DNA of 64,000 nucleotides, from the NCBI GenBank assembly GCA_036558225.1, contig DATBGA010000085.1:6526-70525 (forward strand), in the 5' to 3' direction. The notes under the pieces are model-generated. The model ran no database searches, was not told the DNA's origin, and saw nothing but the letters and a program-made list of their open reading frames with translations. This document shows, in pieces, positions 775-36,092 of the stretch. The DNA comes from Candidatus Methylomirabilota bacterium (GTDB taxonomy: Bacteria; Methylomirabilota; Methylomirabilia; Rokubacteriales; DASRDR01). The translations under genes were made by a program, and so were the position numbers. Every line of letters begins with the position of its first letter. Within the stretch, counting starts at the first letter, position 1.

Positions 775-1227
775 CTACCCGGGGCTCGGCGGCTCCGCCA
801 GGATCCCCTGGATCACCGCCCGGAACTCGGCGATCGTGAACGGCTTCTCCAGGTAGCGGAGAGACGTCCCGTCCAGGAACCGGCGCGTCTCGGTGCTCAT
901 GATGTCCCCCGTGACGAACACCATGCGCCGGACGACCTCGGGGCACACGACCCGCAGCTCCTGGTAGAGGGCCGGGCCGTCCACGTCCGGCATCCGCACG
1001 TCGCTGACGATCAGCGCGTAGGCCCCACGGCGCACGAGCTCGAGCGCCTCGCGCCCGTCCATCGCCCGGTCGACCTCGTAGCCTTCCAGCGACAGGAACT
1101 CCGCCAGCAGCTCGCCCACGACCCGCTCGTCCTCGACGAGGAGGGCGCGCGTCTCGGGCCGACCGGCCGGCGGCGGGACCGGCTCGGGGACCGGGTCCAC
1201 CCGGGGGATTTCGACCGGCGCGCTCAC
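775..1227 (-). CDS. stand-alone CheY-like receiver protein (single-domain response regulator)
   Basis: Receiver signature (LLVEDE, phospho-acceptor context LIVSDVRMPDVDG, FVTG, EKPF) with no output domain. GTG start at 1227 overlaps the kinase stop in GTGA. The upstream part of the 296-aa track ORF is Arg/Pro-rich and overlaps the kinase out of frame. Confidence 0.8.
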   Translation of the reverse strand: MSAPVEIPRVDPVPEPVPPPAGRPETRALLVEDERVVGELLAEFLSLEGYEVDRAMDGREALELVRRGAYALIVSDVRMPDVDGPALYQELRVVCPEVVRRMVFVTGDIMSTETRRFLDGTSLRYLEKPFTIAEFRAVIQGILAEPPSPG

Positions 1228-3140
1228 GGCGCCTGGCTCCCGATCCGCCGCTCGCCGGAGGCCGGGTGGTCCGCCCGGGGGCCGGCGCGCGTCGGGAGCG
1301 CGATTGTGAACACGGTCCCCTGGCCCGGGGAGCTCCGGAACGTCACCGTGCCGCCATGGTCCTCGACGATCTTGTGCGCGATGGCCAGCCCGAGCCCCGT
1401 GCCCCCCACCTTGGTGGTGAAGAATGGGTTGAAGACGTCCGCCGTCTCCTCCGGCTTGATCCCGCTGCCGGTGTCCATCACCTCCAGCACGAGCCGGTCG
1501 CGGGACACGCCGCCGGGGCCCTCGGCATCCGGGGGCCAGCCCAGGCGCACGGTCAAGGTGCCGCCCTCGTCCTCCATGGCGTCGATGGCATTCGCGACGA
1601 GGTTGAGGAGGGCCTGGTAGAGGTGCTCGGCGTCTCCGGGGACGGGCGGCACCCCGGCCGGCCACTCGCGCCGCACGCGGATGCGACGGGCCTCGATCTG
1701 CGGCGCGTAGAGCTCGAGCGCCTGCTCGAGGAGCGGCGGGAGGTGCACGGGGGCGAGCTCGAGACGCGCGGGCCGGGCGAGCCGCAGAAGCCCGTCGACG
1801 ATCGCGTTGATCCGCTCGAGCTCGCGAGGGACCACGCTCTGGAACCGCTGGCGGAACCGCTCGTCGTCGAATCGCCGGGCGACGTGGCGGCTGAACGTCA
1901 TGATGGACGTCAGCGGGTTCTTGATCTCGTGCGCGAGGCCGGCCGCCAGCGTGCCCAGCGCCGCGAGACGGTCGGAGCGGCGGAGCTGCTCCTCCAGCTG
2001 GCGGACGGGCGTCAGGTCCCGGAGGACGGCCACCACTCCGAGGGCCTGCCCCTCCGCGCCGCGGAGGGGGGTCGTGGCCACCTCGACCGGCGCGGGCGGC
2101 CCGTCGCGCTGCGGCAGCGTGAGCACGGCCTGCGGCACCCCCACGCGGGTCCGGAGCGTCTCGAGTAGCAGGTCCCGGAACTCCGGGACGTGATGGAACG
2201 CCTCCGCGGCCGGCCGGCCCGTGAGCACGCTCGCCGCCCAGCCGGTGAGGGCCTCCGCGGCGGGGTTCACGGTGACCACGCGGCCGTCGAGGTCCAGCGT
2301 CACGAGCCCGTTCACGAAGGACCGGAGAATGTGATCGTTGTAGCTCTTCAGATCGGACAGCTCCGCGAAGCGCTGGTGCAGCGCCGCGTCGGCCACCTCG
2401 AGGTCCGTCCGCTGCTGGCGGAGCTGCGCCGCCATCTCGTTGAACGCGAGGGCGAGCCGGCCGAGCTCGTCGGAGCTGCCCGGGTGAATGCGCTGGTCCA
2501 GCTCCCCGCGCGCGATCGCGGCGACGCCGTCGGCGAGCTCGCGGACCGGCCGGGTGATCCGCCGGGCGACGACCGCTGTCGCCAGGCCGCCCAGCACGAG
2601 CGCGACCACGGCCAGCGCCGCCAGCTCGCGTCGGGTGCCGGCGATCTCCGCGTCCATGCGCCGCCGCGACAGCGCGATCCGCACGCTGCCCCAGCGGGTG
2701 CCGTCGACCAGGATCGGCACCGCGAAGTCGTAGAGCCGTTCCCCGTCCGACCCGGTCGTCTCCTGCAGCACGGGGGCGGCCGCGAGGGCCCGGAGGGACA
2801 CCGAATCCGACGGCGTGGAGCCGACCGCCCCGGGATCCCGGCTGTGCGCCACGACCTGGCCCAACCGGTCGAGGATCATCGCGTAGACCACGTCCGTCTC
2901 ATGGTCGAAGCGCACGACGTTCTGCTCGAGCGCCGTGAAGTTGTAGAGGAGGAGCGCGCCGGCCGACACGCCGGCCAGACCTTCCGCCAGAGCCGTCCCG
3001 CGGCGGTGGACCTCCTCGATGATGGTCGTCCGCTGCCGATGCTCCACGACGACCGCTACCGCGGCCATGAGGGCGGCGACGATCAGGATGGTCCCGATGA
3101 GGAGCTTGGTGCGAAGCGACACGAAGACGGGGCGAGTCAT
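1224..3140 (-). CDS. sensor histidine kinase (TM, ~150-aa periplasmic domain, TM, HAMP, PAS, HisKA, HATPase_c)
   Basis: Start is MTRPVFVSL (ATG at 3140). Two hydrophobic spans flank an extracytoplasmic segment. H-box LAHEIKNPLTSI, N-box NLVANAIDA, G-boxes DTGSGI and GGTGLGLAI. The first 325 aa of the 964-aa track ORF overlap the SBP gene and are rejected. Confidence 0.9.
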   Translation of the reverse strand: MTRPVFVSLRTKLLIGTILIVAALMAAVAVVVEHRQRTTIIEEVHRRGTALAEGLAGVSAGALLLYNFTALEQNVVRFDHETDVVYAMILDRLGQVVAHSRDPGAVGSTPSDSVSLRALAAAPVLQETTGSDGERLYDFAVPILVDGTRWGSVRIALSRRRMDAEIAGTRRELAALAVVALVLGGLATAVVARRITRPVRELADGVAAIARGELDQRIHPGSSDELGRLALAFNEMAAQLRQQRTDLEVADAALHQRFAELSDLKSYNDHILRSFVNGLVTLDLDGRVVTVNPAAEALTGWAASVLTGRPAAEAFHHVPEFRDLLLETLRTRVGVPQAVLTLPQRDGPPAPVEVATTPLRGAEGQALGVVAVLRDLTPVRQLEEQLRRSDRLAALGTLAAGLAHEIKNPLTSIMTFSRHVARRFDDERFRQRFQSVVPRELERINAIVDGLLRLARPARLELAPVHLPPLLEQALELYAPQIEARRIRVRREWPAGVPPVPGDAEHLYQALLNLVANAIDAMEDEGGTLTVRLGWPPDAEGPGGVSRDRLVLEVMDTGSGIKPEETADVFNPFFTTKVGGTGLGLAIAHKIVEDHGGTVTFRSSPGQGTVFTIALPTRAGPRADHPASGERRIGSQAP

Positions 3141-3151
3141 GCGACGTCCGC

Positions 3152-4789
3152 TCAGCGCGGTCGCTCGAGCCACACCTTGCGGAAGGGGATGTACGAGTCG
3201 CCGAGGCCGCTCACCTCGACTCCCTTGACGTACGGCTGGAAGAGGCGCTCGTACGTGTGGTGCCAGACGGGGATCACGGGGGCGTCCTCCAGCACCATCT
3301 CCTCCACCCGGCGGTAGACCTCGACCCGGCGCGCCATGTCCGGCTCGGCCCGCGCCCGCTCGAGCAGCGAGTCCACCGCCGGATTGGCGTAGCCCATGTA
3401 GTTCCACGGGCTCGCCGAGTAGAACAGCTTCGCGAGGAAGTTCTCGGGATCCGGCACGTCGGCGAACCAGGCCCGGAGAAAGACGGGGAGCTTCCGCTCG
3501 GCCATGGCCTTGGAGAAGCTCGGCCAGTCCGGATTGTACTGGAACTCCGCCGTGACCCCTACCGCCTCGAGATCCTTCCGGATCCGATCGTCCTCGCGAA
3601 GGATCTCCTCGGACCGGACGCTCGACCAGATCACGATGGGCGGCAGCCCGCGCCCGCCGGGATAGCCTGCCTGCGCCAGAAGCTCGCGCGCACGCGCGGG
3701 ATCGTAAGCGTAGCCCTTGAGCTTCGGGTTGTAGCCGAGCGTCCCGGGCGGGAGGATGCCCTTCGCGAAGGCGTAGCGGCCCAGCCAGATCTCCGAGACC
3801 ACCGCCTCTCGGTCGATGGCGTGGAGGAGCGCCTGGCGCACCCGCCGGTCGTCGAGCGGCTTCGTGCGCGTGCTGATCCCGTAGTGGCGAAGGCCGAAAA
3901 CCGGCCGGCGCACGTACTGGTAGGACTGCCCGGCGATGATCTGGCGGTAGTCCTTGGCGGGAATCGGGCTGTCCTCGAGCGCCCCCGCCTTGAACTCGGC
4001 GAAGACTCCGTCGGGGCCCTCCCCCGGAAAGATGCGATACACGAGCCGCGCGAGCTTCGGGGGCCCGTCGAAGTAGTCCGGGTTGGCGGCCAGCACGATC
4101 TCCTTCCCTCGGTCCCACCGCACGAAGCGGAAGGGACCCGTGCCGACGGGCTGGGCGCCGAACGCCTCCCCCTGCTCCTCCACCAGCTCGCGCGGCACGA
4201 TCTTGGCCTGGCCGACTGCCAGGATGGAGACGAAGGGCACTGGCGCCTCCGTCAGGGTGACGCGGACGGTGTAGCGGTCCACCACGGTGAGCCCCGAGAT
4301 GGCGCGGGCCCGACCCTCGCGAAACTCCTGCGCGCCTTGAATGCCCATGAAGTGATCGGCCCCTCCCGATCGGGTCCGCGGGTCCACGAGTCGGGTGAAG
4401 GAGTAGACGACGTCATCCGCCGTCACCTCCCGGCCGTGGTGGAACCTGACGCCCTTTCGGAGGGTGAAGGTCCAGGTGAGACCATCGCGCGAGGCGAGCC
4501 AGAACTGGGCGAGCGCTGGCGTGATGCTGAGGGTCTGGTCGAACTGGACGAGCCCGTCGAAGAGCTGCTGCATGACCGCGAGGCTGTAGATGTCGCGGAG
4601 CCGGGCCGGGTCGAGTGTCCCGGGGTCGTGGCCGATCGGGCGGCGATAGACTCCCCCCAGCTGGGCAGGCGAGCCCCCCTGGGCCCCGACCGAGGTCGAT
4701 CCGAGGCCCAGTGAGAGCCCAAGCGTGCCTAGGGCCAGCCAGCCGCCCCAGCGACGACGCGCGGAGCGTCCCGACGGGGCGGGACGCAT
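3152..4789 (-). CDS. family-5 extracellular solute-binding protein (peptide/nickel/opine type), orphan
   Basis: Signal peptide MRPAPSGRSARRRWGGWLALGTLGLSLGLG followed by a typical DppA/OppA/NikA-like SBP_bac_5 sequence. ATG at 4787-4789. No permease or ATPase genes are adjacent. Confidence 0.85.
   Translation of the reverse strand: MRPAPSGRSARRRWGGWLALGTLGLSLGLGSTSVGAQGGSPAQLGGVYRRPIGHDPGTLDPARLRDIYSLAVMQQLFDGLVQFDQTLSITPALAQFWLASRDGLTWTFTLRKGVRFHHGREVTADDVVYSFTRLVDPRTRSGGADHFMGIQGAQEFREGRARAISGLTVVDRYTVRVTLTEAPVPFVSILAVGQAKIVPRELVEEQGEAFGAQPVGTGPFRFVRWDRGKEIVLAANPDYFDGPPKLARLVYRIFPGEGPDGVFAEFKAGALEDSPIPAKDYRQIIAGQSYQYVRRPVFGLRHYGISTRTKPLDDRRVRQALLHAIDREAVVSEIWLGRYAFAKGILPPGTLGYNPKLKGYAYDPARARELLAQAGYPGGRGLPPIVIWSSVRSEEILREDDRIRKDLEAVGVTAEFQYNPDWPSFSKAMAERKLPVFLRAWFADVPDPENFLAKLFYSASPWNYMGYANPAVDSLLERARAEPDMARRVEVYRRVEEMVLEDAPVIPVWHHTYERLFQPYVKGVEVSGLGDSYIPFRKVWLERPR
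4766..4787 (-). promoter_or_regulatory. perfect 8-bp stem-loop that begins at the G of the SBP start codon
   Basis: mRNA sense is AU[GCGUCCCG]CCCCGU[CGGGACGC]. No Shine-Dalgarno in the 17 nt between the peptide-1 stop and this ATG. Confidence 0.3.
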
Positions 4790-4806
4790 CCAGGAGAGCG
4801 GGGCTG

Positions 4807-4953
4807 CTACCAGCCGCCGCCGCCGCCGCCGTCGCAGGCGTTGCCCACGGCCTGGAAGACCGGCATGTGGGTCTGCGTCCCCGACTCGATCACCGGGGCC
4901 ACAAGAAGAAAGGACACCACGATCACCAGCACGGTCCATACCTTCGTCATCAT
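4807..4953 (-). CDS. small secreted/membrane-anchored peptide P1 (48 aa), unknown family
   Basis: My own translation: MMTKVWTVLVIVVSFLLVAPVIESGTQTHMPVFQAVGNACDGGGGGGW. SD GGGAGG lies 2-5 nt upstream of ATGATG. Paralog of P2, with mostly synonymous differences in the shared 3' part. Below the size cut-off of the ORF track. Confidence 0.7.
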   Translation of the reverse strand: MMTKVWTVLVIVVSFLLVAPVIESGTQTHMPVFQAVGNACDGGGGGGW

Positions 4954-5026
4954 AGCCTCCCGGACGCCGGACGGCGCCCGACTGTGGGGGTTGGCTCGAT
5001 CGGAACCGTCGTGGTCGGAGAGGGTT

Positions 5027-5170
5027 CTACCAGCCGCCGCCGCCGCCGCCGTCGCAGGCGTTGCCGACCGCCTGGAAGACCGGCATGTGGGTCTTCGTCC
5101 CCGACTCGATCACCGGGGCCACCAGCAGGAAGGACGCGATGATCACAAGCATCGCCGTGAACCTGATCAT
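5027..5170 (-). CDS. small secreted/membrane-anchored peptide P2 (47 aa), paralog of P1
   Basis: C-terminal part of track ORF 5027..5404: MIRFTAMLVIIASFLLVAPVIESGTKTHMPVFQAVGNACDGGGGGGW. SD GGAGGAGG lies 8 nt upstream of the ATG at 5170. Sits downstream of a sigma-54 promoter match. Confidence 0.7.
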   Translation of the reverse strand: MIRFTAMLVIIASFLLVAPVIESGTKTHMPVFQAVGNACDGGGGGGW

Positions 5171-5187
5171 GGGCAGGCCTCCTCCAT

Positions 5188-5206
5188 GCGTCTCGTGGCG
5201 AGACGC
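5188..5206 (-). promoter_or_regulatory. stem-loop in the P2 5' leader, immediately 5' of the SD
   Basis: GCGTCTCG-CCA-CGAGACGC, a perfect 8-bp stem with a 3-nt loop. Confidence 0.3.
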
Positions 5207-5231
5207 GGTCTGTGGGTTCGGAGTGATGGAG

Positions 5232-5247
5232 AGCAAGGCCGGGGCCA
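5232..5247 (-). promoter_or_regulatory. sigma-54 (-24/-12) promoter for the peptide genes
   Basis: Minus strand reads TGGCCC-CGGCC-TTGCT against consensus TGGCAC-N5-TTGCW (10 of 11 specified positions, correct spacing). It lies about 60 nt upstream of the P2 ATG. Confidence 0.6.
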
Positions 5248-5348
5248 CCGCGGAATTCGATGGCCCCGCGAGGACGGAAGTATCCGCCAGGACGGGCGAA
5301 TCAGGTCTGCGCGTAGCCGGGGCTCGGCCGGTCGGACCAAAGACCGGA

Positions 5349-5368
5349 GTGCACTGTTTCCTGTGCAG
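5349..5368. promoter_or_regulatory. candidate enhancer (UAS) site A: GTGCAC-N8-GTGCAG
   Basis: Same architecture as sites B and C. Centre is about 110 bp upstream of the -24 element. Confidence 0.45.
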
Positions 5369-5432
5369 CCCCCCCGGCGATCGGGTGCGGATCTCCCCGA
5401 TCACGTCTGCAGAATCAGGGCCTTACGACGCG

Positions 5433-5473
5433 GTGCACACTAGACTGTGCACGGTGCACTGTCTACTGTGCAC
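5433..5473. promoter_or_regulatory. candidate enhancer sites B and C: two abutting GTGCAC-N8-GTGCAC units
   Basis: GTGCACactagactGTGCAC g GTGCACtgtctactGTGCAC. Centres are 21 bp apart, and the A-B centres are 84 bp apart (whole helical turns). The units overlap the stop codon of the enhancer-binding protein gene. TGCAC half-sites resemble NtrC-family sites. Confidence 0.5.
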
Positions 5474-6902
5474 CTCCCCCATCCGGTCGACCTCCGGCGG
5501 AGGCCAGGGCCACGGGGTCGATCCCCCAGGCCAGGAGCTTCGTCTTGAGCGAGTTCCGGTGGAGCCCGAGGAGCCGCGCCGCCTCCGACTGGTTCCACCG
5601 AACCCGCTCGAGGACGCGGAGGATGACCTGGCGGTCGAACCGCTCCCGGGCCTCGCGGAGCGGCAAGCTCGTGGGGTCGTCGACCAGGTGGCGCACGTCC
5701 GGGAGCATCAGGTCGAGCGGCACGTCCTTGACCTCGACGACGAGCCCGTCGGCCAGCGCGACGGCGCGCTCGATGACGTTCTGGAGCTCCCGCACGTTCC
5801 CCGGCCACCCGTACGCCATCAGGACGTCGAGCGCGGCCGGCGAGACCCCGGTGACGCGCTTGTGCAGGAGATGATTCGACCTCCGGATGAAGTGGTCGAC
5901 CAGGAGGGGGATGTCCTCGCGGCGGTCGCGGAGCGGCGGCACGGCGATCTGGACGACGTTCAGGCGGTAGTAGAGGTCCTCCCGCAGGCTCCCGCCCTGG
6001 ATGGCCTTGCGCAGGTCGGCGTTGGTGGCGGCGATCACCCGCACGTCGACCGGGATGCGCCGGGTCCCCCCGACGCGCTCGATCTCGCGCTCCTGGAGCA
6101 CGCGCAGGATCTTGGCCTGGAGGTCGACGCGCAGCGTGGCGATCTCGTCCAAGAACAGGGTGCCCCGGTGCGCCAGCTCGAACTTCCCGAGCTTCCGCGA
6201 GACGGCGCCGGTGAAGGAGCCTTTCTCGTGGCCGAAGAGCTCGGACTCGATGAGCGTCTCGGAGATCGCCGCCACGTTCACGGGCACGAACGGCTGGTCC
6301 CGCCGCGGCCCGTGCCGGTGGATCGCCCGCGCGACGAGCTCCTTCCCGGTTCCGCTCTCGCCCGCAATCAGCACGGTGAGCGGGTTCCGCGCCACGGCGC
6401 TGATCAGCTGGTAGAGCTGCTGCATCAGCGGATGCTGGCCGACGAGCTGGTCGAAGTCGCGCTCCCGCGCCAGCTCCGATCGGAGGTAGACGACCTCGCG
6501 GTCGAGCGCGCGGCGCTCGAGCGCACGGCGGATCAGGGGCAGGATCTCGTCCTCGTCGAACGGCTTGGTGACATAGTCGAGCGCGCCCAGCTTCATGGCC
6601 GCCACCGCGGCGGTCACGGTCTGGACCGCGGTCACCAGGACCACCTCAACGTGCTCGTCGATCGCCTTGATCCGCTCCAGGACCTCGATGCCGTCCATGC
6701 CGGGGAGCCGGAGGTCGAGCAGGACGAGGTCCACCGGTGCGCCCTGGACGCGCTCGAGGGCCTCAGGGCCGTCGCCCGCCTCCACGATCTGGTACTGTTC
6801 CTCCAGGACGAGCCGGAACGCCTCGCGGATGCCCGGGTCGTCGTCCACGACCAGGATGGTGGGGCGGGCGGCGCGGTCCGGCACGGACGGGAGCGGGGAC
6901 AT
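5463..6902 (-). CDS. sigma-54-dependent response regulator (NtrC family: REC + AAA+ + Fis-type HTH)
   Basis: Start is MSPLPSV (ATG at 6902). REC domain ILVVDDD and [16 protein letters not shown]+ Walker [24 protein letters not shown] (GAFTGA-type loop). C-terminal [19 protein letters not shown]. Confidence 0.9.
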
Positions 6903-6907
6903 TCCCC

Positions 6908-7588
6908 TCAGGAGGAGACCTCGACGGCGCGGGGATCCGGCTCGTAGAGCACGAACCGCATCGGCGTCGGGCGGTGGGCGTTGGTCGGGGTGATGTCCGA
7001 GGGGCAGGCCGAGTTGGCCGCCAGGACATCCATCTCCGCCAGGAGGTCGACGTAGTCGCCCGCCCGCGAGGGCGCCGCCATGGGCCGGACCGATCCGTCG
7101 GGCTGGACCGGCCACTGCATGAAGAAGTTGAAGGAGAAGGGCACGTCCTCGAGCTCGATGCCCCAGGGCGCGAGCGCCTCGGCGAGATTCGAGCGACAGC
7201 TCCGGTGTGGCCCGGTGTAATCCAGCCGGTTCCGGTAGTACTCCTCGCTGCAGGAGCCGCAGATGAGGTCGTGCACGCCCACCGTGTCGGCGATCAGGCG
7301 CATCATGGGCCGCCCGCGGTCGGACACGAGCGCCGCCCCCGTCCTCGGGTAGATCGTGCGGTTGAAGAGCACGGTGTTCTGCGGGGAGTACCGCTCGCCG
7401 AGGTCATCCCGGTTGAAGCAGACGAAGTCGCCGACCTGCTGCCCGTCGACGTCGATGACCCGCAGAACGAGCCCGCGAGCGACCTCGATCGCCGCGCCGT
7501 GACGCGCCGGGATCTCCACGATCCGGACCACGCGCCCCGGCACCGCCGCCCGACCGAGATGTGTCGCGCTCACTCGGGACCCCCGCAC
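6908..7588 (-). CDS. DUF1989 / urea-carboxylase-associated family protein
   Basis: The pattern (DVDGQQVGDFVCFNRDDLGERYSPQNT, HDLICGSC, CRSNLAEAL, FNFFM, AGDYVDLLAEMDVLAANSACPSD) matches my recollection of this family. The stop lies 5 nt before the regulator start. Start may be 7588 or 7573 (both GTG). Confidence 0.65.
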   Translation of the reverse strand: MRGSRVSATHLGRAAVPGRVVRIVEIPARHGAAIEVARGLVLRVIDVDGQQVGDFVCFNRDDLGERYSPQNTVLFNRTIYPRTGAALVSDRGRPMMRLIADTVGVHDLICGSCSEEYYRNRLDYTGPHRSCRSNLAEALAPWGIELEDVPFSFNFFMQWPVQPDGSVRPMAAPSRAGDYVDLLAEMDVLAANSACPSDITPTNAHRPTPMRFVLYEPDPRAVEVSS

Positions 7589-7697
7589 ACCCGTGCCCAG
7601 CCGGGCCGCCCGGCGTGCGGGGGGAGCGTATCACAGCTCGCGCACGCTATGATGGCCGCCGAAAAGTGCGCTCGTGATCGAGCGGGGAGGACGCGGA

Positions 7698-8540
7698 ATG
7701 GGGCGGCTCGAGGGCAAGGTGGCCATGGTGACCGGGAGCGGTGGCCAGCGCGGCTTCGGGCGGGCGATCGCGCGGCGGCTGGCGACCGAGGGGGCGGACC
7801 TGGTGCTCACGGATGTCGCGCCGGCTGGCATCCGCGTCGTGGCCCGGAAGCCTGCGACCGGCTGGGGCGGCCTCGAGACGGTCGCCGACGAGGTCCGGGA
7901 GGCCGGCCGCCGGGCCGTCACCGCCCTGGTCGACGTGCGCGCGGTCGAGCAGATCCAGCGCGCCGTCGACCTCGCGGACCGGACCTTCGGCCGGATCGAC
8001 ATCCTCGTCAACAACGCCGCCGCCCCGCCCGGCGCCGATCGCGTCCCGGTGGTCGAGCTCCCGGAGGAGGCGTGGCGCGAGGTCCTGGAGACCAACCTCA
8101 CCGGCACGTACCTCTGCAGCAGGGCCGTCGCCGGGCTCATGGTGGCGCGGGGCACGCCGGGCCGCATCATCAACATGTCCTCGAACTGCGGGAAGGCTGG
8201 CTACCCGCGCCTCGCCGCCTACTGCGCCTCCAAGTTTGGCGTGATCGGGTTCACCCAGGCGCTCGCCATGGAGCTCGCGCCGCACCGCATCACCGTGAAC
8301 GCGATCTGTCCCGGCTCGGCCGACACCGACCGGCTCGACTACCTCGGGCGGCGCCCCGACGGGAGCTACGACGAGACGCTCCGCGCGGAGGCCCTCGCCC
8401 AGCGCGCGGCCCAGATCCCGCTCAGGCGCGTCGCCGGCGCCGAGGACGTCGCGGAGCTGGCGGCCTTCCTCGGATCGGACGCCGCGGGCTACGTCACCGG
8501 GCAGGCCATCAACCTGGCCGGCGGCGCCGTCATGCACTGA
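7698..8540 (+). CDS. SDR family oxidoreductase (FabG-like)
   Basis: ATG preceded by GGGAGGA. Rossmann motif VTGSGGQRGFG, NNAA, catalytic Y-x3-K (YCASK). Confidence 0.85.
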   Translation: MGRLEGKVAMVTGSGGQRGFGRAIARRLATEGADLVLTDVAPAGIRVVARKPATGWGGLETVADEVREAGRRAVTALVDVRAVEQIQRAVDLADRTFGRIDILVNNAAAPPGADRVPVVELPEEAWREVLETNLTGTYLCSRAVAGLMVARGTPGRIINMSSNCGKAGYPRLAAYCASKFGVIGFTQALAMELAPHRITVNAICPGSADTDRLDYLGRRPDGSYDETLRAEALAQRAAQIPLRRVAGAEDVAELAAFLGSDAAGYVTGQAINLAGGAVMH

Positions 8541-8617: not shown

Positions 8618-9649
8618 ATGGAATCGGAACCGACCGTCCGGCGCGCGTGGCCCACCCGGGTCCGGGGACTCCGGGCGCTGGCCCCGGGTCTCTTGCTGGC
8701 CGGCTGTGGCCTGCTGGACTCGCCGGCGACGACGCTGACGCCGCGATCCGACTTCGGCTGGACGTCCCACCGGATCTTCCTCCAGATCCTGCGCTGGGAC
8801 ACGGCGATCTTTCTGGTGGTCCAGGCCCTGCTCCTCGTCGCGATCTTCCGGTTCCGGGAGCGCGAGCCGGGGCCGATCCCCCGGCAGGTGCGCGGCAGCG
8901 CGAAGCTCGAGCTCGCCTGGACGCTCATCCCGGCGGTCATCCTGACCTTCATCGCCTTCCCGACCGTGGGCGCGATCTTCCGGACGCAGGCTGCGCCTCC
9001 GAAGAACGCGCTCCGGGTGAAGGTCATCGGGCATCAGTGGTGGTGGGAGTTCCAGTATCCGGAGCTCGGGATCGTCACCGCCAGCGACCTCCACCTCCCG
9101 GCCGGGCGCCCGGTGAGCCTCGAGATCGCGAGCTCCGACGTCATCCACAGCTTCTGGGTGCCCCAGCTCGGCGGCAAGCGCGACGCGATCCCCGGCGACC
9201 TGACGCGCATCGTCCTCACTCCCGACGCGCCCGGGGAATACTACGGCCAGTGCGCCGAGTTCTGCGGCGCCTCGCACGCCAACATGCGCCACCTCGCCGT
9301 CGTCGAGCCGCCGGAGGCCTTCGACGCGTGGGCGGCGAGGCAGAAGGAGCCCGCGGCGGCCCCGCCCGACGGGTCCCCGGCGGCGGTGGGGCTCCAGACC
9401 TTCCGGACGGGCACGTGCGTCGGATGCCACACGGTGCGCGGGCTGTCGGCGGGCGGGATCGGGCCCGACCTCACCCACTTCGGCTCCCGCCGGACGATCG
9501 CCGGCGGCATCCTCCCGAACACGCCGGAGAACCTGGCGCGGTGGGTCCGGCACGCGCCGGCGCTGAAGCCCGGGTCGATCATGCCAGAGCAGCAGCTCTC
9601 CGACACGGAGGTCACGGCGCTGGTCGCGTACCTCCAGAGCCTCCGCTGA
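8618..9649 (+). CDS. ctaC: cytochrome c oxidase subunit II fused to a C-terminal cytochrome c domain (caa3-type)
   Basis: Lipobox LLAGC, two TM helices, CuA motif HSFWVP...CAEFCGASHANM, heme c motif CVGCH. Confidence 0.9.
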   Translation: MESEPTVRRAWPTRVRGLRALAPGLLLAGCGLLDSPATTLTPRSDFGWTSHRIFLQILRWDTAIFLVVQALLLVAIFRFREREPGPIPRQVRGSAKLELAWTLIPAVILTFIAFPTVGAIFRTQAAPPKNALRVKVIGHQWWWEFQYPELGIVTASDLHLPAGRPVSLEIASSDVIHSFWVPQLGGKRDAIPGDLTRIVLTPDAPGEYYGQCAEFCGASHANMRHLAVVEPPEAFDAWAARQKEPAAAPPDGSPAAVGLQTFRTGTCVGCHTVRGLSAGGIGPDLTHFGSRRTIAGGILPNTPENLARWVRHAPALKPGSIMPEQQLSDTEVTALVAYLQSLR

Positions 9650-9651
9650 GC

Positions 9652-12108
9652 ATGGCCGACGGCGCCCACGCCGCGTCCGTCGCCGTCGCGGCTACCGCTC
9701 CGCGGGCCGCCGAGGCCCGCGGCCTCGCGTCCTGGCTGACCACGGTCGACCACAAGCGGATCGGCCTCCTCTACGGTGGGACCGCCCTCGCGTTCTTCCT
9801 GCTCGCGGGGCTCGAGGCCCTCCTCATCCGGCTCCAGCTGGCCCGGCCCGAGGGTCAGCTCCTCGGCGCCCAGCGGTACAACGAGCTGTTCACGATGCAC
9901 GGCACCAGCATGGTGTTCCTGGCGCTGATGCCGCTGTCCGTCGCGTTCTTCAACTACCTCATCCCGCTGATGGTCGGCGCGCGCGACGTGGCCTTCCCCC
10001 GGCTGAACGCGCTCTCGTACTGGGTCTTCCTCCTCGGCGGGCTCTTCCTGAACGCGAGCTGGCTCGTCGGCACGCCCCCGGACGCCGGCTGGTTCGGCTA
10101 CGCGCCGCTCACGTCGAAGCCGTTCTCGATCGGGCCGCACTCCGACTTCTGGCTGCTCGCTCTGCTCTTCCTCGGGACGTCGAGCATCCTCGGGTCGCTG
10201 AACTTCCTGGTGACGATCCTCAACCTGCGGGCGCCCGGGATGACGTTCCTCCGGCTGCCCCTCTTCGTCTGGACGACCCTCGTCACCAACGTCCTCATCC
10301 TCCTCGCCTTCCCGCCGATCACGGTCGCGCTGATCTTCCTGATGTTCGACCGCTTCTTCGGGACCTCCTTCTACGTCCCCGCTGGCGGGGGCTCGCCGCT
10401 CCTATGGCAGCACCTGTTCTGGATCTTCGGCCACCCCGAGGTCTACATCCTGATCCTGCCCGCGATGGGGATCGTCTCCGAGGTGCTGCCGACCTTCGCG
10501 CGGAAGCCCCTGTTCGGCTACCCCTCGATGGTCTACGCGACCGCCCTCATCGGCTTCCTCGGCTTCGGCGTCTGGGCCCACCACATGTTCGCGGTCGGCA
10601 TGGGCCCGATCGCCGACTCGGCGTTCGGGCTGACGTCGATGCTCATCGCCATCCCGACCGGGATCAAGATCTTCAACTGGCTGTCGACCATGTGGGGCGG
10701 CGCGCTCCGCTTCCGGACCGCGCTCTGCTTCGCGGTGGCGTTCGTCGGGATGTTCACCATCGGCGGCCTGTCCGGCATCATGCACGCCTCCCCGCCGGTC
10801 GATCTCCAGCAGACCGACTCCTACTTCGTGGTGGCGCACTTCCACTACGTGCTCTTCGGCGGCACGGTCCTGGCGCTCTTCGCCGGCATCTACTACTGGT
10901 TCCCGAAGATGACGGGCCGCCTCCTCGACGAGCGGCTGGGGCAAGTCCACTTTTGGCTGATGCTGATCGGATTCAACCTGACCTTCTTCCCCATGCACTT
11001 CCTCGGGCTGATGGGCATGCCGCGGCGGATCTACACGTACGCGCCGGGGCTCGGGTGGGACTTCTGGAACCTGGTCTGCACCGTCGGCGCGGTCCTCCAG
11101 GGGGTCTCGCTCGTCGTGTTCGTCCTGAACGTGGCCCGGAGCCTGCGGTCGGGCGCCGTGGCCGGCCCGGACCCGTGGGACGGGCGGACGCTCGAGTGGG
11201 CGCTGCCGTCGCCGCCGCCCGAGTACAACTTCGCGGCGCTGCCCACGGTCCTCCGGCGCGACGCCCTCTGGCTCACCAAGTACCCCGACGCGCGCGGCCC
11301 TGGCCTCGCCGATGCGCGCGCGCTCGTCACGCCGGTCGGGCCGATTTACATGCCGGCACCGTCCCACTGGCCCCTCCTCACCGCCCTGGCGATGATCGTG
11401 CTGGTCGGGGGCGCCCTGCTCCACCTGGGCGTGGTGATCGCGGGGGGGCTCCTGACCCTGCTCGCCGTCCTGGCATTCGCGACCGAGCTCGTCCCGGCGC
11501 CCGCGGCCGACGGCATGCACACGGCCGGGCACCACGAGCACCCGCACATCGGGGCCACCGGCCTCGACCACCGGAAGCTGGGCATCTGGGTGTTCATCGG
11601 CTCCGAGTGCCTGTTCTTCGGAACGCTGATCTCGACCTACACGGTCTACCGGGGCCGGAGCCTCCAGGGACCGTATCCACACGAGATCCTGAACGTGCCG
11701 CTGATCACCGTGAGCACGTTCATCCTCCTGATGTCGAGCCTGACGATGGTCCTGGGGGTGGCGGCCATCCAGGCGCGGGACGTGCGCGCCGCCCGCCGCT
11801 GGCTCCTGGCGACCGCCGCCCTGGGATGCCTGTTCCTGGTCGGCCAGGTGTACGAGTTCAGCCACTTCGTCCACGAGGGGCTCGGGCTCACGACGAACCT
11901 GTTCGCCGCGACCTTCTACGTCATGGTCGGTTTCCACGGCACCCACGTGACGGTGGGCGTGCTCTGGCTCCTGGCTCTCTGGTATCTCCTGACGCGCGGC
12001 CGCCTCGGGGCCCGGGACGAGGCGCTGGTGGACATGGTCGGGCTGTACTGGCACTTCGTCGACGTCGTGTGGATCGCGATCTTCACCCTGGTCTATCTCA
12101 TCCAGTAG
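9652..12108 (+). CDS. ctaD: cytochrome c oxidase subunit I fused in frame to subunit III
   Basis: ATG at 9652, 2 nt after the ctaC stop. Subunit I signatures: WLTTVDHKRIG, WFFGHPEVYILILP-type segment, HHMF. Subunit III-like helices run from HHEHPHIGATGLDHRKLGIWVFIGSECLFF to ...WHFVDVVWI. The first ~335 codons of the 1153-aa track ORF are an out-of-frame overlap of ctaC and are rejected. Confidence 0.9.
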   Translation: MADGAHAASVAVAATAPRAAEARGLASWLTTVDHKRIGLLYGGTALAFFLLAGLEALLIRLQLARPEGQLLGAQRYNELFTMHGTSMVFLALMPLSVAFFNYLIPLMVGARDVAFPRLNALSYWVFLLGGLFLNASWLVGTPPDAGWFGYAPLTSKPFSIGPHSDFWLLALLFLGTSSILGSLNFLVTILNLRAPGMTFLRLPLFVWTTLVTNVLILLAFPPITVALIFLMFDRFFGTSFYVPAGGGSPLLWQHLFWIFGHPEVYILILPAMGIVSEVLPTFARKPLFGYPSMVYATALIGFLGFGVWAHHMFAVGMGPIADSAFGLTSMLIAIPTGIKIFNWLSTMWGGALRFRTALCFAVAFVGMFTIGGLSGIMHASPPVDLQQTDSYFVVAHFHYVLFGGTVLALFAGIYYWFPKMTGRLLDERLGQVHFWLMLIGFNLTFFPMHFLGLMGMPRRIYTYAPGLGWDFWNLVCTVGAVLQGVSLVVFVLNVARSLRSGAVAGPDPWDGRTLEWALPSPPPEYNFAALPTVLRRDALWLTKYPDARGPGLADARALVTPVGPIYMPAPSHWPLLTALAMIVLVGGALLHLGVVIAGGLLTLLAVLAFATELVPAPAADGMHTAGHHEHPHIGATGLDHRKLGIWVFIGSECLFFGTLISTYTVYRGRSLQGPYPHEILNVPLITVSTFILLMSSLTMVLGVAAIQARDVRAARRWLLATAALGCLFLVGQVYEFSHFVHEGLGLTTNLFAATFYVMVGFHGTHVTVGVLWLLALWYLLTRGRLGARDEALVDMVGLYWHFVDVVWIAIFTLVYLIQ

Positions 12109-32776: not shown

Positions 32777-33916
32777 ATGATGTCACATTTAGCTAATCTG
32801 GCTGGCGTCTGGCCCACAGCCGCGGCCTACCGCCCCGACCCTCCGGGCGCGATTTGGGGTATTCTGAGGCCCATAACGAGGCTCCGGGCGTCTTTCGCGA
32901 CATTCGGACGTTGGACCTTCGGGCATTGGACTTTGGTCCAGGGCGTCACAGTGTCGCTGACCCTCATAGGATGCCTGGCCGGTCCGGGGCCGGGGCCGGC
33001 TTGGGCCGGACACGGCGGGGTCGTACAGGCGAACCGCGCCGCCGCGGGCCCCTACGCCCTGTCCGTCTGGACCCAGCCCTCGCCGCCGACGGCGGGCCCC
33101 TGGCACGTCGACGTCGCGGTGATGCGCGAGGGCGGCGTGCCCGTCACGGACGCCGCGGTCCGGGTCCGCGCCGAACCCCTCGCGGGCCCGGCCCCGCCCG
33201 TGGAGGCGGACGCGCGCCGCGACGCCGACCCGCTCGGCGTGCGCTATCGCGCGAGCCTCACGCTCCCCGCTGCCGGGCCGTGGCGGATCTCCGTGTCCGT
33301 CGCCGGACCGGCCGGCTCCGGTGCGCTCGCCTTCCCCGTCGATGTCGAGCCGGCGAGCCGTGGCTGGTGGCTTGCAGCCGTCCTCGGCGGCGCCGGGCTC
33401 GTCCTCCTGGTTGCGATCACCGCCCTCCGGCGACGCCGTCTCGCGGCCGCCGCGATCGGGGTGCTGCTCCTGGTCACGCCCGCGTGGCCGCACGCCACCC
33501 TGGTGCGGTCGAGCCTCGCCCGGCGCGCCACGCTCACTACCGCGGCGGACCGCGTCCAGCTCTGGTTCAACGAGGCCATCGAGCCCAAGTTCTCGCGCGT
33601 CTCGGTGTGGGACGCCGCCGGCCAGCAGATGGATCTCGCCGACGCGCGGATCGAGCCCGAGGACCCGAAGCGCCTGAGCGTCGGGTTGAAGCCGCTCGCC
33701 CGGAGCACCTACCGCGTCCGCTTCCGCGTCCTCTCAGTCGACGGTCACGTCGTCGAGAGCGAGTTCCCCTTCACGCTGCCCCGTAGCGGCGTCGGGCGGG
33801 GGCGGCCGAGGCGTGGGAGGCAAGCTCCCGCGACGGGACTCGCGGCGAGCGGCTCGGCTCGCGGCGTCGGCGCTCAGTCGAACGTCGTGAGCTGGGCGGC
33901 CGCCTGGCGGTCGTAG
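32777..33916 (+). CDS. FixH/YtkA-like domain, TM hairpin and CopC domain fused in one ORF (copper-handling protein)
   Basis: Possible lipobox TLIGC. Ig-like domain (GPYALSVWTQPSPPTAGPWHVDVAVM...GPWRISVSV). TM, RRRR, then a signal-peptide-like helix LAAAAIGVLLLVTPAWP. CopC follows, starting HATLVRS and containing SVDGH. Start codon is uncertain (ATG 32777/32780, TTG 32933, GTG 32951). The 3' end overlaps the convergent ABC ATPase gene by 43 nt. Confidence 0.6.
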   Translation: MMSHLANLAGVWPTAAAYRPDPPGAIWGILRPITRLRASFATFGRWTFGHWTLVQGVTVSLTLIGCLAGPGPGPAWAGHGGVVQANRAAAGPYALSVWTQPSPPTAGPWHVDVAVMREGGVPVTDAAVRVRAEPLAGPAPPVEADARRDADPLGVRYRASLTLPAAGPWRISVSVAGPAGSGALAFPVDVEPASRGWWLAAVLGGAGLVLLVAITALRRRRLAAAAIGVLLLVTPAWPHATLVRSSLARRATLTTAADRVQLWFNEAIEPKFSRVSVWDAAGQQMDLADARIEPEDPKRLSVGLKPLARSTYRVRFRVLSVDGHVVESEFPFTLPRSGVGRGRPRRGRQAPATGLAASGSARGVGAQSNVVSWAAAWRS

Positions 33917-34677
33917 CCGAGGCTCGCCTGGAGGAGCTGGCGCGTGTAGGGCTCGGCGGGCGCCGCGGCGCGCAGCTGGTCCTGGGTCAGCTCTTCCACG
34001 ACGCGCCCGCCGTTCATCACGAGCAGCCGCTCGCAGAGGTGCGCCACGACGGCGAGGTTGTGGCTCACGAGGACGTATGTCAGGCCGCGCTCGCGCCGAA
34101 GCCGGGCGAGCAGGTTCAGGATCTCGGCCTGCACCGACACGTCGAGCGCCGAGGTCGGCTCGTCGAGGAGCAGGATGCGGGGCTCCAGGATGAGGGCGCG
34201 GGCGATCGACACGCGCTGGCGCTGGCCGCCGGACAGCTGATGCGGGAACCGGAACCGGAAGCTCGGACCGAGCCCGACCTCCGCGAGAGCCCGCTCGACG
34301 CGCCGGTCGGCTTCGCGCCCGGCGAGCCCGTGAATGGCCAGGGGCTCGATGAGGACCCGGTCCACCGTATGGCGCGGGTGGAGCGAGCCGTACGGGTCCT
34401 GGAAGACCATCTGGCAAACGCGGGCGAACGCCCGCACGCGATGCGGCCCCTGCGTCTGGCCGGCCACGGTGATCCGTCCAAGCGCCGGCGCGACCAGGCC
34501 GGCGATGGCGCGCAGGACCGTGGTCTTCCCGGAGCCCGACTCGCCGACCAGGCCGAACGCAGCGCCCTCGGCCACGCGGAACGACACGTTCCGGACGGCC
34601 TGCACCGTCCCCGCGCCGTGCCCGAAGAGCACGTCGAGACCCTCGACCTCGAGGATTACCGGCGCGCGGCCGCTCAT
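33874..34677 (-). CDS. peptide/nickel ABC transporter ATP-binding protein (DppF/OppF-like)
   Basis: Walker A GESGSGKT, signature LSGGQRQR, Walker B LLLDEPTSALD. Confidence 0.9.
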   Translation of the reverse strand: MSGRAPVILEVEGLDVLFGHGAGTVQAVRNVSFRVAEGAAFGLVGESGSGKTTVLRAIAGLVAPALGRITVAGQTQGPHRVRAFARVCQMVFQDPYGSLHPRHTVDRVLIEPLAIHGLAGREADRRVERALAEVGLGPSFRFRFPHQLSGGQRQRVSIARALILEPRILLLDEPTSALDVSVQAEILNLLARLRRERGLTYVLVSHNLAVVAHLCERLLVMNGGRVVEELTQDQLRAAAPAEPYTRQLLQASLGYDRQAAAQLTTFD

Positions 34678-35186
34678 TCGATGAGCGCGTCCGCCCGCGC
34701 GCGCACGGACTGAGGGATCGCGACGCCGACGGCCTTCGCGGTCTTGCGGTTGACGACGAAGTGGAACCGGCCGGCCTGCTCCACCGGGAGGTCTCCGGGG
34801 TTGGCGCCCAGCAGAATGCGCTGGACGATCTTGGCGGAGAGCCGGCCGATCGTGTCATAGCTCTCGCCATGGGCGGCCAGCGCCCCGTTGACGACGCTCC
34901 AGCGCTCCTGGAACATCGTCGGCAGGCGCTTCGACAGCGCGCTTTCGATGAGCCACTCCGTCCGGCTGGCTACCATCGCGTCCGCCACGTAGAACCGGGT
35001 ATCCACCTCTCCGGGCCGGAGGGCGCGCACACCAGCCCGCAGTCCGTCGACGGCCGTGGCGCACGCTCCCCCGCCCTGGATGAGGACACCCACGCGATAG
35101 GGGCGAGCCGGCTGCGCCTCGACCGCCGTCGGCCAGGTGACAAGCGCGAGCCCCCAGAGGCTCGCGAGCGCCAGCCGGATCGTCAT
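34674..35186 (-). CDS. half-size ABC_sub_bind-family binding protein (internal ~150-aa deletion relative to the paralog at 39982-40962)
   Basis: 170 aa. A signal peptide plus YRVGVL N-terminus is joined to the C-terminal lobe ...GANPGDLPVEQAGRFHFVVNRKTAKAVGVAIPQSVRARADALIE. Its stop overlaps the dppF-like ATG (ATGA). Confidence 0.55.
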   Translation of the reverse strand: MTIRLALASLWGLALVTWPTAVEAQPARPYRVGVLIQGGGACATAVDGLRAGVRALRPGEVDTRFYVADAMVASRTEWLIESALSKRLPTMFQERWSVVNGALAAHGESYDTIGRLSAKIVQRILLGANPGDLPVEQAGRFHFVVNRKTAKAVGVAIPQSVRARADALIE

Positions 35187-35239
35187 CGGCCCGGTCCCCG
35201 TGCCCGATCGCTCGATGGCCGGCCAGCTGGCGCGGCGGC

Positions 35240-36085: not shown

Positions 36086-36092
36086 GCCAGGA

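Follow-up and report, generated by a model that had tools for sequence, protein, structure and literature searches.

Signalling from a solute-binding protein (SBP) to a sensor kinase has several precedents, among them the family-5 system CBP-ChiS and the sigma-54-linked systems AioXSR and LuxPQ-LuxO, and SBP genes located beside signalling rather than transporter genes typically encode proteins that stimulate kinases (PMC8050422). The ligands of the SBP-dependent kinases covered in this 2021 review are small molecules or ions, not products of the same operon. In the LuxP-LuxQ-(LuxU)-LuxO pathway of Vibrio, a periplasmic SBP and a self-made signal act through a kinase on an NtrC-type sigma-54 activator. 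In AioX-AioS-AioR, an orphan SBP gene lies beside the genes for a Cache-like kinase and a sigma-54 response regulator, and in CBP-ChiS of Vibrio, an SBP_bac_5 protein controls the kinase via its periplasmic domain (PMC8050422).

Systems of other kinds share further features with the locus described here. The agrBDCA and comCDE operons of Firmicutes are auto-induced and carry a peptide precursor gene together with a sensor kinase gene. Peptide-based self-signalling is, to our knowledge, rare outside Gram-positive bacteria. For the enterococcal pheromones, a family-5 SBP (PrgZ or OppA) binds a self-made hydrophobic oligopeptide that is the C-terminal fragment of a signal peptide. In MgrB-PhoQ, ZraP-ZraSR and CpxP-CpxAR, a small envelope protein under two-component control acts back on the kinase, and ZraSR is sigma-54 dependent.

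Judged from its sequence, the cluster described here looks like a new, peptide-based self-sensing circuit of the SBP-dependent sigma-54 two-component type. It lies in a 64,000-nucleotide stretch of DNA that was analysed as a whole (the window). The reading that we favour, with a probability of about 0.4, is that of a self-contained two-component circuit, near-exclusive to Rokubacteria, whose only visible regulated product beyond the sensor proteins would be a small exported peptide. The original prediction of seven minus-strand genes is confirmed by the ORF coordinates and by Pfam domain assignments. These genes and the associated control elements are:

6908-7588, minus strand: DUF1989 protein (Pfam DUF1989, E 2e-57)
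5463-6902, minus strand: NtrC-type sigma-54 activator (Pfam Response_reg, Sigma54_activat, AAA_lid_14 and HTH_8)
5350-5472, no strand assigned: three TGCAC-N8-GTGCA palindromes, activator-type sites
5233-5247, minus strand: predicted sigma-54 promoter TGGCCCCGGCCTTGC (-24 GG, -12 GC)
5027-5170, minus strand: peptide gene P2, 47 aa, MIRFTAMLVIIASFLLVAPVIES followed by GTKTHMPVFQAVGNACDGGGGGGW, with the predicted cleavage between the two, after IES
4807-4953, minus strand: peptide gene P1, the tandem paralogue of P2, 48 aa (47 aa if translation starts at the second ATG, 4950)
3152-4789, minus strand: SBP of the DppA/OppA type with its own signal peptide (Pfam SBP_bac_5, E 3e-86)
1224-3140, minus strand: sensor histidine kinase (Pfam sCache_3_2 at residues 37-168, then HAMP, PAS, HisKA and HATPase_c)
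775-1227, minus strand: lone receiver (Pfam Response_reg only)

Only 5 nt separate the DUF1989 stop codon from the activator ATG, 17 nt the P1 stop codon from the SBP ATG, and 11 nt the SBP stop codon from the kinase ATG. The coupling noted earlier for kinase and receiver was found in the sequence, where the stop codon of the one and the start codon of the other share the letters GTGA. P1 and P2 are genuine paralogues that form a tandem repeat with a unit of 217 nt, and each is preceded by a GGAGG-type ribosome-binding site. Because no terminator-like sites occur between the operon genes, the gaps are 11-73 nt and the last junction overlaps, the peptide gene(s), SBP, kinase and receiver, in this order, are predicted to form one operon.

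The comparison covered 124 loci: 44 from genomes, anchored on the peptide, and 80 from metagenomes, anchored on the SBP. The conserved unit consists of four genes: the activator, the peptide (in 1-5 tandem copies), the orphan SBP and the Cache-HAMP-PAS kinase. Among the peptide-anchored loci with enough sequence, the SBP gene directly follows the peptide gene in 40/40, the kinase gene is present after the SBP gene in 33/34, and the activator gene lies upstream of the peptide gene in 38/40. With the SBP as anchor, the peptide was found in 72/72 loci, the kinase in 49/49 and the activator in 43/44. The co-conservation that had been expected thus holds for these four genes in both anchoring directions, but not for DUF1989 and the lone receiver, and the seven genes can no longer be regarded as one module. 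The cluster occurs almost only in Rokubacteria, an uncultured soil phylum, and its flanks change by clade (SDR, COX and ABC-F genes here; another kinase, SLT, ComM-like, patatin or endonuclease genes elsewhere). Functional linkage of the four core genes is well supported. In one locus (L006), the activator, kinase and receiver have been lost while five peptide copies and the SBP have been kept.

The control region lies between the activator gene and the first peptide gene. The first two palindromes (5455-5472 and 5434-5451) are in a 21-bp register, equal to the TRF period over the palindromes (21), and the third is at 5350-5367. They are the only 3 matches to this pattern in 64 kb (0.01 expected), and 46/46 matches in 687 kb of related loci fall within the activator-peptide spacer; no other palindrome target was seen within 64 kb or within +/-10 kb of the relatives. 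The palindromes are 100-225 nt upstream of the putative promoter, which itself precedes the P2 start codon by about 63 nt. A TGGC-N7-TTGC(T) element is present at -78 to -113 in 35/36 non-redundant relatives, with a variable N7 spacer between fixed flanking elements. This element, its fixed spacing and the upstream activator sites together characterize it as a predicted sigma-54 dependent promoter. The gene for sigma-54, rpoN, was not found in the sequence searched, and its presence in the genome is therefore assumed. Activator-driven transcription of the peptide genes is well supported as a prediction, since the DNA just ahead of the first of these genes carries both the conserved sigma-54 promoter and the activator-type palindromes.

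Members of the NtrC family are recognized by a receiver with a phospho-acceptor Asp, a GAFTGA-type AAA+ loop and a C-terminal Fis-type HTH. The activator belongs to this family: it has a DDD...D receiver pocket, an AAA+ domain with a GSFTGA loop and a Fis-type HTH. It reached no NCBIfam equivalog cutoff (AtoC, NtrC, ZraR and others), scoring 475 against 714 for AtoC, 439 against 559 for NtrC and 395 against 760 for ZraR; LuxO was also among the matches. The kinase, in which TM, periplasmic sCache_3_2 (about 135 aa), TM, HAMP, PAS, HisKA and HATPase segments follow one another, scored 362 against 646 for AtoS and 226 against 479 for ZraS. The resemblance to AtoC, NtrC, ZraR and LuxO on the one hand and to AtoS and ZraS on the other is thus at the family level only. 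An anti-phage defence system was considered and rejected: the PADLOC matches of the activator are generic sigma-54 AAA+ ones (RtcR models), those of the activator and lone receiver to SduA and PD-T4-6 are weak receiver-domain matches (E about 1e-4 to 1e-5), and no known system is represented.

The SBP is of the family-5 (cluster C) peptide-binding type represented by DppA and OppA. Its best solved relatives are the peptide binders 8upi, DppA, HbpA, AibA, MppA, OppA and PrgZ (PDB 4faj). In DppA, the Asp408-type residue anchors the alpha-amino group of the ligand, that is, its free N-terminus. Asp444 of the SBP aligns to DppA Asp408, and among 34 orthologues this position holds Asp in 33 and Glu in 1; the protein thus combines the SBP_bac_5 domain with the acidic residue that anchors N-termini. 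Its predicted structure is of low confidence (pLDDT 49.5). The original prediction of an SBP without a transporter partner was borne out, as no permease or ATPase gene is present within the module or adjoins the SBP gene in any of the 124 related loci; the ABC-F fragment at 35-736 lies on the opposite strand and is not a transporter. In SBP-dependent kinase systems (TorT-TorS, LuxP-LuxQ, CBP-ChiS, AioX-AioS and HptA-HptS), SBP and signalling genes are associated, and physical contact between the SBP and the sensor domain alters kinase activity. This locus, in which the gene association is present and conserved among relatives, is a candidate for such a system.

It is possible that this SBP is an ordinary transport protein for a distant Dpp/Opp permease, with the kinase and activator regulating only peptide uptake and the small ORFs being leader-like or accessory. 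A complete Dpp/Opp-type ABC operon does exist in the window at 33874-39894, and this transporter, about 30 kb away, could in principle accept the module SBP, in which the ligand-anchoring Asp of the DppA type is kept. However, that operon has its own family-5 SBP, only 29% identical to the one in the module, and permease and ATPase genes are unlinked in all 124 loci; the location of the SBP gene beside signalling genes also points to kinase stimulation (PMC8050422). Moreover, the small ORFs are not mere leaders, as strong protein-level purifying selection acts along their whole length. We therefore regard this explanation as very unlikely. An output role of the peptide (antimicrobial, surface-active or envelope-related), with the SBP, kinase and activator sensing peptides from the environment or some other cue and no feedback, is in our judgement quite unlikely. 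The peptide gene is indeed the first, multi-copy gene of the regulated operon and encodes its only non-regulatory product, the palindromes have no second target in the range given above, and the Gly-rich C-terminal tail is like that of some Gly-rich bacteriocins. Yet genes for immunity, export or modification are linked to it in none of the 124 loci, and such peptides usually diversify, while this one is near-frozen across the phylum. The strict adjacency of peptide and SBP genes, whose coordinates abut or overlap in two loci (L041 and L043), suggests joint action of the two proteins.

The peptide might instead modulate the kinase from the membrane or the periplasm, as a product of the same system that damps or amplifies it by feedback, with the SBP sensing an external oligopeptide or a related ligand. 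Its 47 aa, single hydrophobic helix and short outside tail correspond to the layout of MgrB; in NCBIfam, kinase and activator have ZraS and ZraR among their better hits; and the peptide gene is placed behind the system's own sigma-54 promoter. In addition, the invariant SFLLVAPVIESGT at the membrane-periplasm boundary is conserved far above the level of a normal signal peptide, consistent with a retained helix whose contacts are specific. Nevertheless, the -5/-3/-1 pattern (P..I.S) makes a good signal-peptidase site, and the 1-5 tandem copies and the retention of peptide and SBP without the kinase in L006 agree better with a peptide that pairs with the SBP, as its ligand or partner, than with one that pairs with the kinase. 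The resemblance to MgrB, ZraP and CpxP is one of layout, as no sequence relationship to these or to other known modulator families was detected with Pfam or NCBIfam; their systems have no SBP, and the modulators are not in multi-copy tandem arrays. Altogether we consider the modulator explanation unlikely, but if it were true, the peptides would even then count as a new family of small kinase regulators.

The family of these peptides carries no annotation and comprises 57 clusters in a set of 1.84 billion proteins, and P1 and P2 gave no match in Pfam (E <= 0.01) or NCBIfam (E <= 1). In this respect the earlier view that the system is without a described counterpart stands, since no described family in these collections matches the peptide. 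The predicted Sec signal is canonical, with a hydrophobic core of 17 residues following a basic N-terminus, and the cleavage-site pattern has Pro, Ile and Ser at positions -5, -3 and -1, followed by G/A-T. Two motifs stand out, an LLVAPV(I/L)ES block and an F..G.A block. The former is invariant while its synonymous sites are free (Ala, Pro and Leu are each encoded by four different codons), a sign of translation and of constraint at the protein level; for comparison, the HisKA domain of the kinase is only 78% identical in distant loci. Conservation of the peptide peaks within its predicted signal sequence, which would be odd if the cleaved C-terminal peptide were the ligand, and the peptide may be uncleaved and retained in the membrane. 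The peptide-metal complex proposed earlier is weak: only 8/34 mature peptides contain Cys, and there is no conservation of His, Met or the terminal Trp either, making a metal-binding role unlikely. A RiPP cluster was likewise rejected, because the peptide has no conserved enzyme partner, DUF1989 being restricted to one clade, and because so few of the mature peptides contain Cys.

In the self-contained circuit that we favour, the NtrC-type activator, bound to the palindromes and acting on the -24/-12 promoter, would drive the peptide gene(s), SBP, kinase and receiver as one operon. Judging by sequence rules, the peptides would be exported via Sec and cleaved, so that an acidic, Gly-rich product of 19-24 residues would reach the periplasm. 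Gene linkage and the known SBP-kinase systems suggest that the SBP could capture either this peptide or the LLVAPVIES fragment of the signal sequence, and that the loaded SBP could then alter kinase activity via the periplasmic Cache domain. The kinase would set the phosphorylation of the activator and thereby feed back on the operon, so that the circuit would report how much of its self-made peptide is present, as a form of quorum, confinement or periplasm sensing. As a peptide of about 2 kDa may not exit the periplasm of a double-membrane cell, true cell-to-cell signalling is uncertain. The closed loop proposed originally is thus partly supported, namely in its activator-driven peptide transcription and in the linkage of its genes; the metal complex is unlikely, and DUF1989 and the receiver are not fixed parts.

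Several differences set this putative circuit apart from the systems introduced above. The LuxPQ signal, AI-2, is an enzyme-made small molecule, whereas the candidate here is a gene-encoded peptide; LuxP belongs to a different SBP family, LuxQ, a hybrid kinase, depends on LuxU, and the output of LuxO is small RNAs, whereas here it would be the signal's own operon. AioXSR differs in its external oxyanion ligand (arsenite), its SBP of the phosphonate-binding family, its oxidase operon output and its lack of a peptide gene, and CBP-ChiS in its chitin oligosaccharide ligand, an SBP that is also transporter-linked, and the absence of both a sigma-54 activator and an encoded peptide. As in agr and com, a precursor gene is predicted to lie in an auto-induced operon with a kinase gene. 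However, the agr and com peptides bind directly to the membrane domain of the kinase, the regulators are of the LytTR type, and neither an SBP nor sigma-54 is involved; those operons also encode dedicated processing and export proteins, for which no gene was seen in any related locus. The LLVAPVIES block would occupy the same position in its precursor as an enterococcal pheromone does, but that pheromone is imported and acts on a cytoplasmic receptor without a kinase, and its precursors are lipoproteins cut by signal peptidase II and Eep. A more specific proposal, tentative and somewhat doubtful, is that Rokubacteria signal to themselves by a gene-encoded, Sec-exported peptide, perhaps LLVAPVIES, which acts through the orphan SBP and the Cache kinase on the sigma-54 activator, an undescribed auto-induction design for double-membrane cells. 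The locus is a compact, strongly conserved four-gene candidate for peptide self-signalling in a widespread soil phylum without a cultured member. With its promoter and activator sites defined and its peptide short enough to synthesize, rebuilding and testing it in a model host should be feasible.

The two remaining genes are variable. DUF1989 is an addition of one clade and stands outside the conserved module, and its proposed part in the system is not sustained: it is absent from three loci with the same SDR/COX flank (L014, L040 and L042) and from all distant loci. The NCBIfam UAAP1/2 and Tdm domain matches of the protein are far below cutoff. The lone receiver is not a fixed component either: L015 lacks it, and at least 14 distant loci have a HisKA-HATPase-REC protein in its position. 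The count of two receivers but only one kinase therefore applies only to this clade, while in many sister clades a second, cytoplasmic hybrid kinase replaces the receiver. Either the GTGA-coupled receiver or this hybrid kinase may serve as a phosphate sink or branch. The lone receiver is a variable accessory, probably a remnant or reduced form of the hybrid kinase: in NCBIfam it is matched best by hybrid-kinase receiver domains, and it shares 54% identity with the receiver of the hybrid kinase in L016.

All seven minus-strand genes of the module that had been listed in the original prediction were recovered, and their open reading frames (ORFs) and Pfam domains agree exactly with that list.

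Genes of the module in the window (basis of the assignment in parentheses)
6908-7588, minus: DUF1989 protein (ORF and Pfam)
5463-6902, minus: NtrC-type activator, consisting of a receiver, a sigma-54 AAA+ domain and HTH_8 (ORF and Pfam)
5027-5170, minus: P2, a small peptide of 47 aa, predicted to be exported (ORF)
4807-4953, minus: P1, its tandem paralogue of 48 aa (ORF)
3152-4789, minus: family-5 solute-binding protein, SBP, mature part at residues ~37-545 (ORF and Pfam)
1224-3140, minus: sensor kinase, sCache_3_2-HAMP-PAS-HisKA-HATPase, Cache domain at residues ~36-170 (ORF and Pfam)
775-1227, minus: receiver-only protein (ORF and Pfam)

The G+C content of this region is about 70%. The gaps are 5 nt between the DUF1989 and activator genes, 17 nt between P1 and the SBP and 11 nt between the SBP and the kinase, while the kinase/receiver junction is a GTGA overlap. 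The block is flanked by an SDR gene (7674-8540) in divergent orientation and by an ABC-F ATPase fragment (35-736) in convergent orientation. The translated activator has an acidic receiver pocket and a GSFTGA loop, the H-box of the kinase reads HEIKNPL, and the lone receiver keeps all of its catalytic residues. All module proteins scored below the cutoffs of the named NCBIfam orthologue groups, and searches for known defence systems, Rfam families and tRNAs found none.

A peptide-anchored scan, using one genome per species (GTDB), yielded 44 related loci, of which 35 are labelled Rokubacteria or Methylomirabilota, six "uncultured bacterium", and one each Dehalococcoidia, Verrucomicrobiia and Binatia. 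The window proteins were mapped onto these loci, and each component was counted over the loci with enough sequence. The SBP gene directly followed the peptide gene without exception (40/40), the kinase gene followed the SBP gene in 33 of 34 loci (exception L006), and the activator gene preceded the peptide gene in 38 of 40 (exceptions L006 and L018). A reciprocal, SBP-anchored scan of metagenome contigs gave 80 loci with SBPs 60-86% identical; where there was enough sequence, the peptide motif lay 5' of the SBP gene in 72/72 loci, the kinase 3' of it in 49/49 and the activator upstream in 43/44. As judged by sequence and comparison, activator, peptide, SBP and kinase form a conserved four-gene unit. 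Thus, the proposed co-conservation stood for these four in both anchoring directions, but not for DUF1989 or the lone receiver. The best 120 matches listed from an SBP homology search were all close orthologues (at least 68% identity), with no peptide-free outgroup among them. The flanks are COX-SDR-(DUF1989) and ABC-F in the window and its close relatives; the neighbours in other clades are, among others, another kinase, a lytic transglycosylase, a ComM-like ATPase, a patatin and an endonuclease-family protein.

Three loci (L032, L035 and L048) carry a complete Rokubacteria-type module in MAGs labelled Dehalococcoidia, Verrucomicrobiia and Binatia. Mis-binning is more likely than transfer, as gene order and sequence identity match those of the Rokubacteria loci. 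In L006 (9440-11000; Rokubacteria MAG MFD04850.bin.1.411) the module is degenerate: only the first few codons of the activator are left, kinase and receiver are missing, and the -12 element has ATGC in place of TTGC. What is kept is the SBP and a tandem array of five peptide copies that are nearly identical to one another (216-nt unit); single-base indels affect three of these. This state may reflect real decay or a long-read assembly error. In L018 (7000-10200), no activator gene is present within 10 kb 5' of the peptide, where a gamma-glutamyltranspeptidase-like gene and others are found. Because L018 still has the sigma-54 promoter and one activator palindrome, its activator is probably encoded elsewhere in that genome.

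DUF1989 occurs only in the clade closest to the window and is absent from all distant loci; even where the COX/SDR flank is present (L014, L040 and L042), the SDR gene is directly followed by the activator gene. This clade-restricted presence rules DUF1989 out as a component of the module. The receiver-only gene is likewise confined to the closest clade, with none in L015, and at its position at least 14 distant loci have a cytoplasmic HisKA-HATPase-REC hybrid kinase of about 380 aa. Thus, the fixed picture of one kinase with two receivers had to be given up. The hybrid kinase gene lies 3' of the sensor kinase gene in many sister clades (e.g. L017 13745-14812 and L036 13683-14831), and in L047 (11764-14781) the two are fused into a protein of 1005 aa. 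The lone receiver is best read as a remnant of this accessory hybrid kinase, since the hybrid occupies the same position, the L016 hybrid-kinase receiver is 54% identical to the window receiver, and the latter has a Pro-rich, linker-like start and hybrid-kinase receivers as its best NCBIfam matches.

Within the interval between the activator stop and P2, TGGCCCCGGCCTTGC (5233-5247) is an exact match to the sigma-54 pattern TGGC-N7-TTGC. Of 36 non-redundant loci, 35 have such a promoter 78-113 nt 5' of their first peptide gene, the N7 spacer being variable. Three TGCAC-N8-GTGCA palindromes (5350-5472), two of them spaced by 21 bp, lie 5' of the promoter. They are the only ones in the 64-kb window (3 observed versus 0.01 expected), and in 687 kb of related loci all 46 such palindromes fall within the activator-peptide spacer. 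Sequence and comparison thus show a conserved sigma-54 promoter with putative activator sites 5' of the peptide genes. As no terminator-like site separates the downstream genes, the expected transcript is P2-P1-SBP-kinase-receiver, with the activator predicted to be transcribed separately, together with DUF1989; the one terminator-like site in 8 kb is inside the P1 coding sequence and within the number due to chance. No rpoN gene was found in the window or the related loci searched. In one clade, further TGGC-N7-TTGCT sites (L017 4165 and 4482; L026 1965, 2279 and 6120; L035 4018) precede a kinase gene outside the module, a few kb away, whose HAMP-HisKA-HATPase product has about 484 aa. The palindromes are absent from these sites, which are therefore likely served by a different activator.

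P1 and P2 matched no family in Pfam or NCBIfam. With P2 as the query, 5.8 billion proteins yielded 218 matches at E ≤ 10, and the 120 listed are 43-83 aa long, have no Pfam domain and are named only "hypothetical protein". When 1.84 billion cluster representatives were searched exhaustively with a profile, just 57 clusters came up. Those of greater length that were inspected turned out to be gene calls with frameshifts or ORFs extended too far at the N-terminus, and the weakest of the long matches is a repeat protein unrelated to the family, leaving no Rosetta-stone fusion between the peptide and either the SBP or the kinase. The peptides form a real, very narrow family, with one copy per locus in most cases and two, four or five in others. 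The consensus is M-[TA]-K-x-hydrophobic(10)-S-F-L-L-V-A-P-V-I-E-S-[GA]-T-x(3-5)-x-F-Q-A-[IV]-G-[NT]-A-[CDES]-Gly-rich tail, in which L15, L16, V17, A18, P19, V20, E22, S23, F32, G36 and A38 are invariant in all clades. The codons of the invariant block differ freely at synonymous positions, with four each in use for Ala, Pro and Leu, so the constraint is on the protein, and a cause at the RNA or DNA level is ruled out. The layout is that of a Sec signal: a basic N-terminus is followed by a core of some 17 hydrophobic residues, and positions -5, -3 and -1 are taken by Pro, Ile and Ser, respectively, with G/A-T next, in keeping with the (-3,-1) rule for signal peptides. By these comparisons the peptide is translated, strongly constrained and equipped with a predicted export signal.

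The predicted mature peptide has 19-24 residues and is GTKTHMPVFQAVGNACDGGGGGGW in the window. Of 34 mature peptides, 8 contain Cys and 11 His or Met; 14 end in D, 10 in W and 5 in G. The suggestion of a peptide-metal complex does not survive this comparison, and a metal-binding or thiol peptide is rejected as unlikely, none of Cys, His, Met or the terminal Trp being conserved among relatives. A RiPP cluster is also ruled out, a modifying enzyme being linked in no locus. Five tandem ORFs of about 84 aa in L030, for which Pfam matched no family, proved spurious: they are the antisense strand of a 691-aa secreted protein (5080-7155, minus) built from approximately seven repeats, each some 93 aa long (…VSFGWSAGTGATEYWLE.GTTG.GSTNLY…TWQFNDYTY).

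The closest solved relatives of the SBP are peptide binders: 8upi, DppA, HbpA, AibA (AI-2/peptide-type), MppA, OppA and the pheromone binder PrgZ. Asp444 of the SBP aligns with D408 of mature DppA, which in DppA structures holds the alpha-amino group of the ligand, and this position is Asp in 33 and Glu in one of 34 orthologues. An AlphaFold model built from 32 close orthologues had a pLDDT of only 49.5 and a pTM of 0.40. By sequence and comparison, this is a peptide-type SBP with no linked transporter. However, the window also contains a complete Dpp/Opp-type ABC importer operon (33874-39894, minus), whose own SBP is 29% identical to that of the module, and therefore the description "orphan" fits the module only, not the genome as a whole.

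Dpp/Opp operon and neighbouring genes
38107-39894, minus: family-5 SBP of the operon
37013-38128, minus: permease
36082-36981, minus: ORF without a Pfam match, probably the second permease
35240-36085 and 33874-34677, minus: ATPases
39982-40962 and 43019-44314, minus: past the operon, an ABC_sub_bind (PF04392) SBP, then an SBP_bac_1 protein

Between the ATPase genes (about 34686-35012) only the C-terminal third of a PF04392 SBP is encoded, possibly a gene remnant.

Of the closed sensory loop originally proposed, the regulatory part (promoter plus activator sites) and the gene linkage hold. The activator, under control of the kinase, would bind the palindromes and fire the promoter, and the SBP, with the operon's own peptide as its ligand, would act on the Cache domain of the kinase, as SBPs do in CBP-ChiS, AioX-AioS and LuxP-LuxQ (PMC8050422). 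We give this explanation, in which a self-made peptide feeds back on its own operon through SBP, kinase and activator, a probability of roughly 0.4. The peptide as ligand is favoured by the absolute peptide-SBP adjacency in both anchoring directions, by abutting or overlapping coordinates of the two genes (L041 and L043), by multi-copy peptides next to a single-copy SBP, and by L006, in which peptides and SBP are kept while activator, kinase and receiver are lost.

However, the best-conserved block of the peptide lies inside the predicted signal sequence and is invariant, whereas even the HisKA domain of the kinase has only 78% identity in distant loci, which is odd. Three readings may account for it. 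The helix may be retained and contact the kinase or the SBP, making the peptide a modulator comparable to MgrB; a specific processing step may require the block; or the ligand may be a released fragment of the signal peptide, by analogy with the enterococcal pheromones, which are signal-peptide fragments bound by PrgZ.

Several elements of the proposed loop are already known. An SBP, a kinase and a sigma-54 activator are combined in AioXSR and LuxPQ-LuxO, and a family-5 SBP acts on a kinase in CBP-ChiS. Auto-induced operons encoding both peptide and kinase are represented by agr and com of Firmicutes, and small envelope proteins that feed back on their own kinase by MgrB, ZraP and CpxP. The literature searched contained no description of the peptide or the module. 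What appears to be new is the combination, for which the libraries and papers searched offer no described counterpart: a gene-encoded, phylum-restricted peptide, predicted to be Sec-exported, comes first in a sigma-54 operon, with genes for an orphan SBP of the peptide type and the kinase further along. The module has real potential to represent a kind of peptide signalling new to double-membrane bacteria; that it amounts to an auto-induction circuit for quorum or confinement sensing, with a self-made peptide signal read through SBP, kinase and sigma-54 activator, is less likely than not.

An aa3/caa3-type cytochrome oxidase cluster (8618-12108, plus) adjoins the module. It encodes COX2 with a C-terminal cytochrome c domain (CVGCH), then a fused COX1-COX3 of about 820 aa, an arrangement also seen in the related loci L003 and L005.
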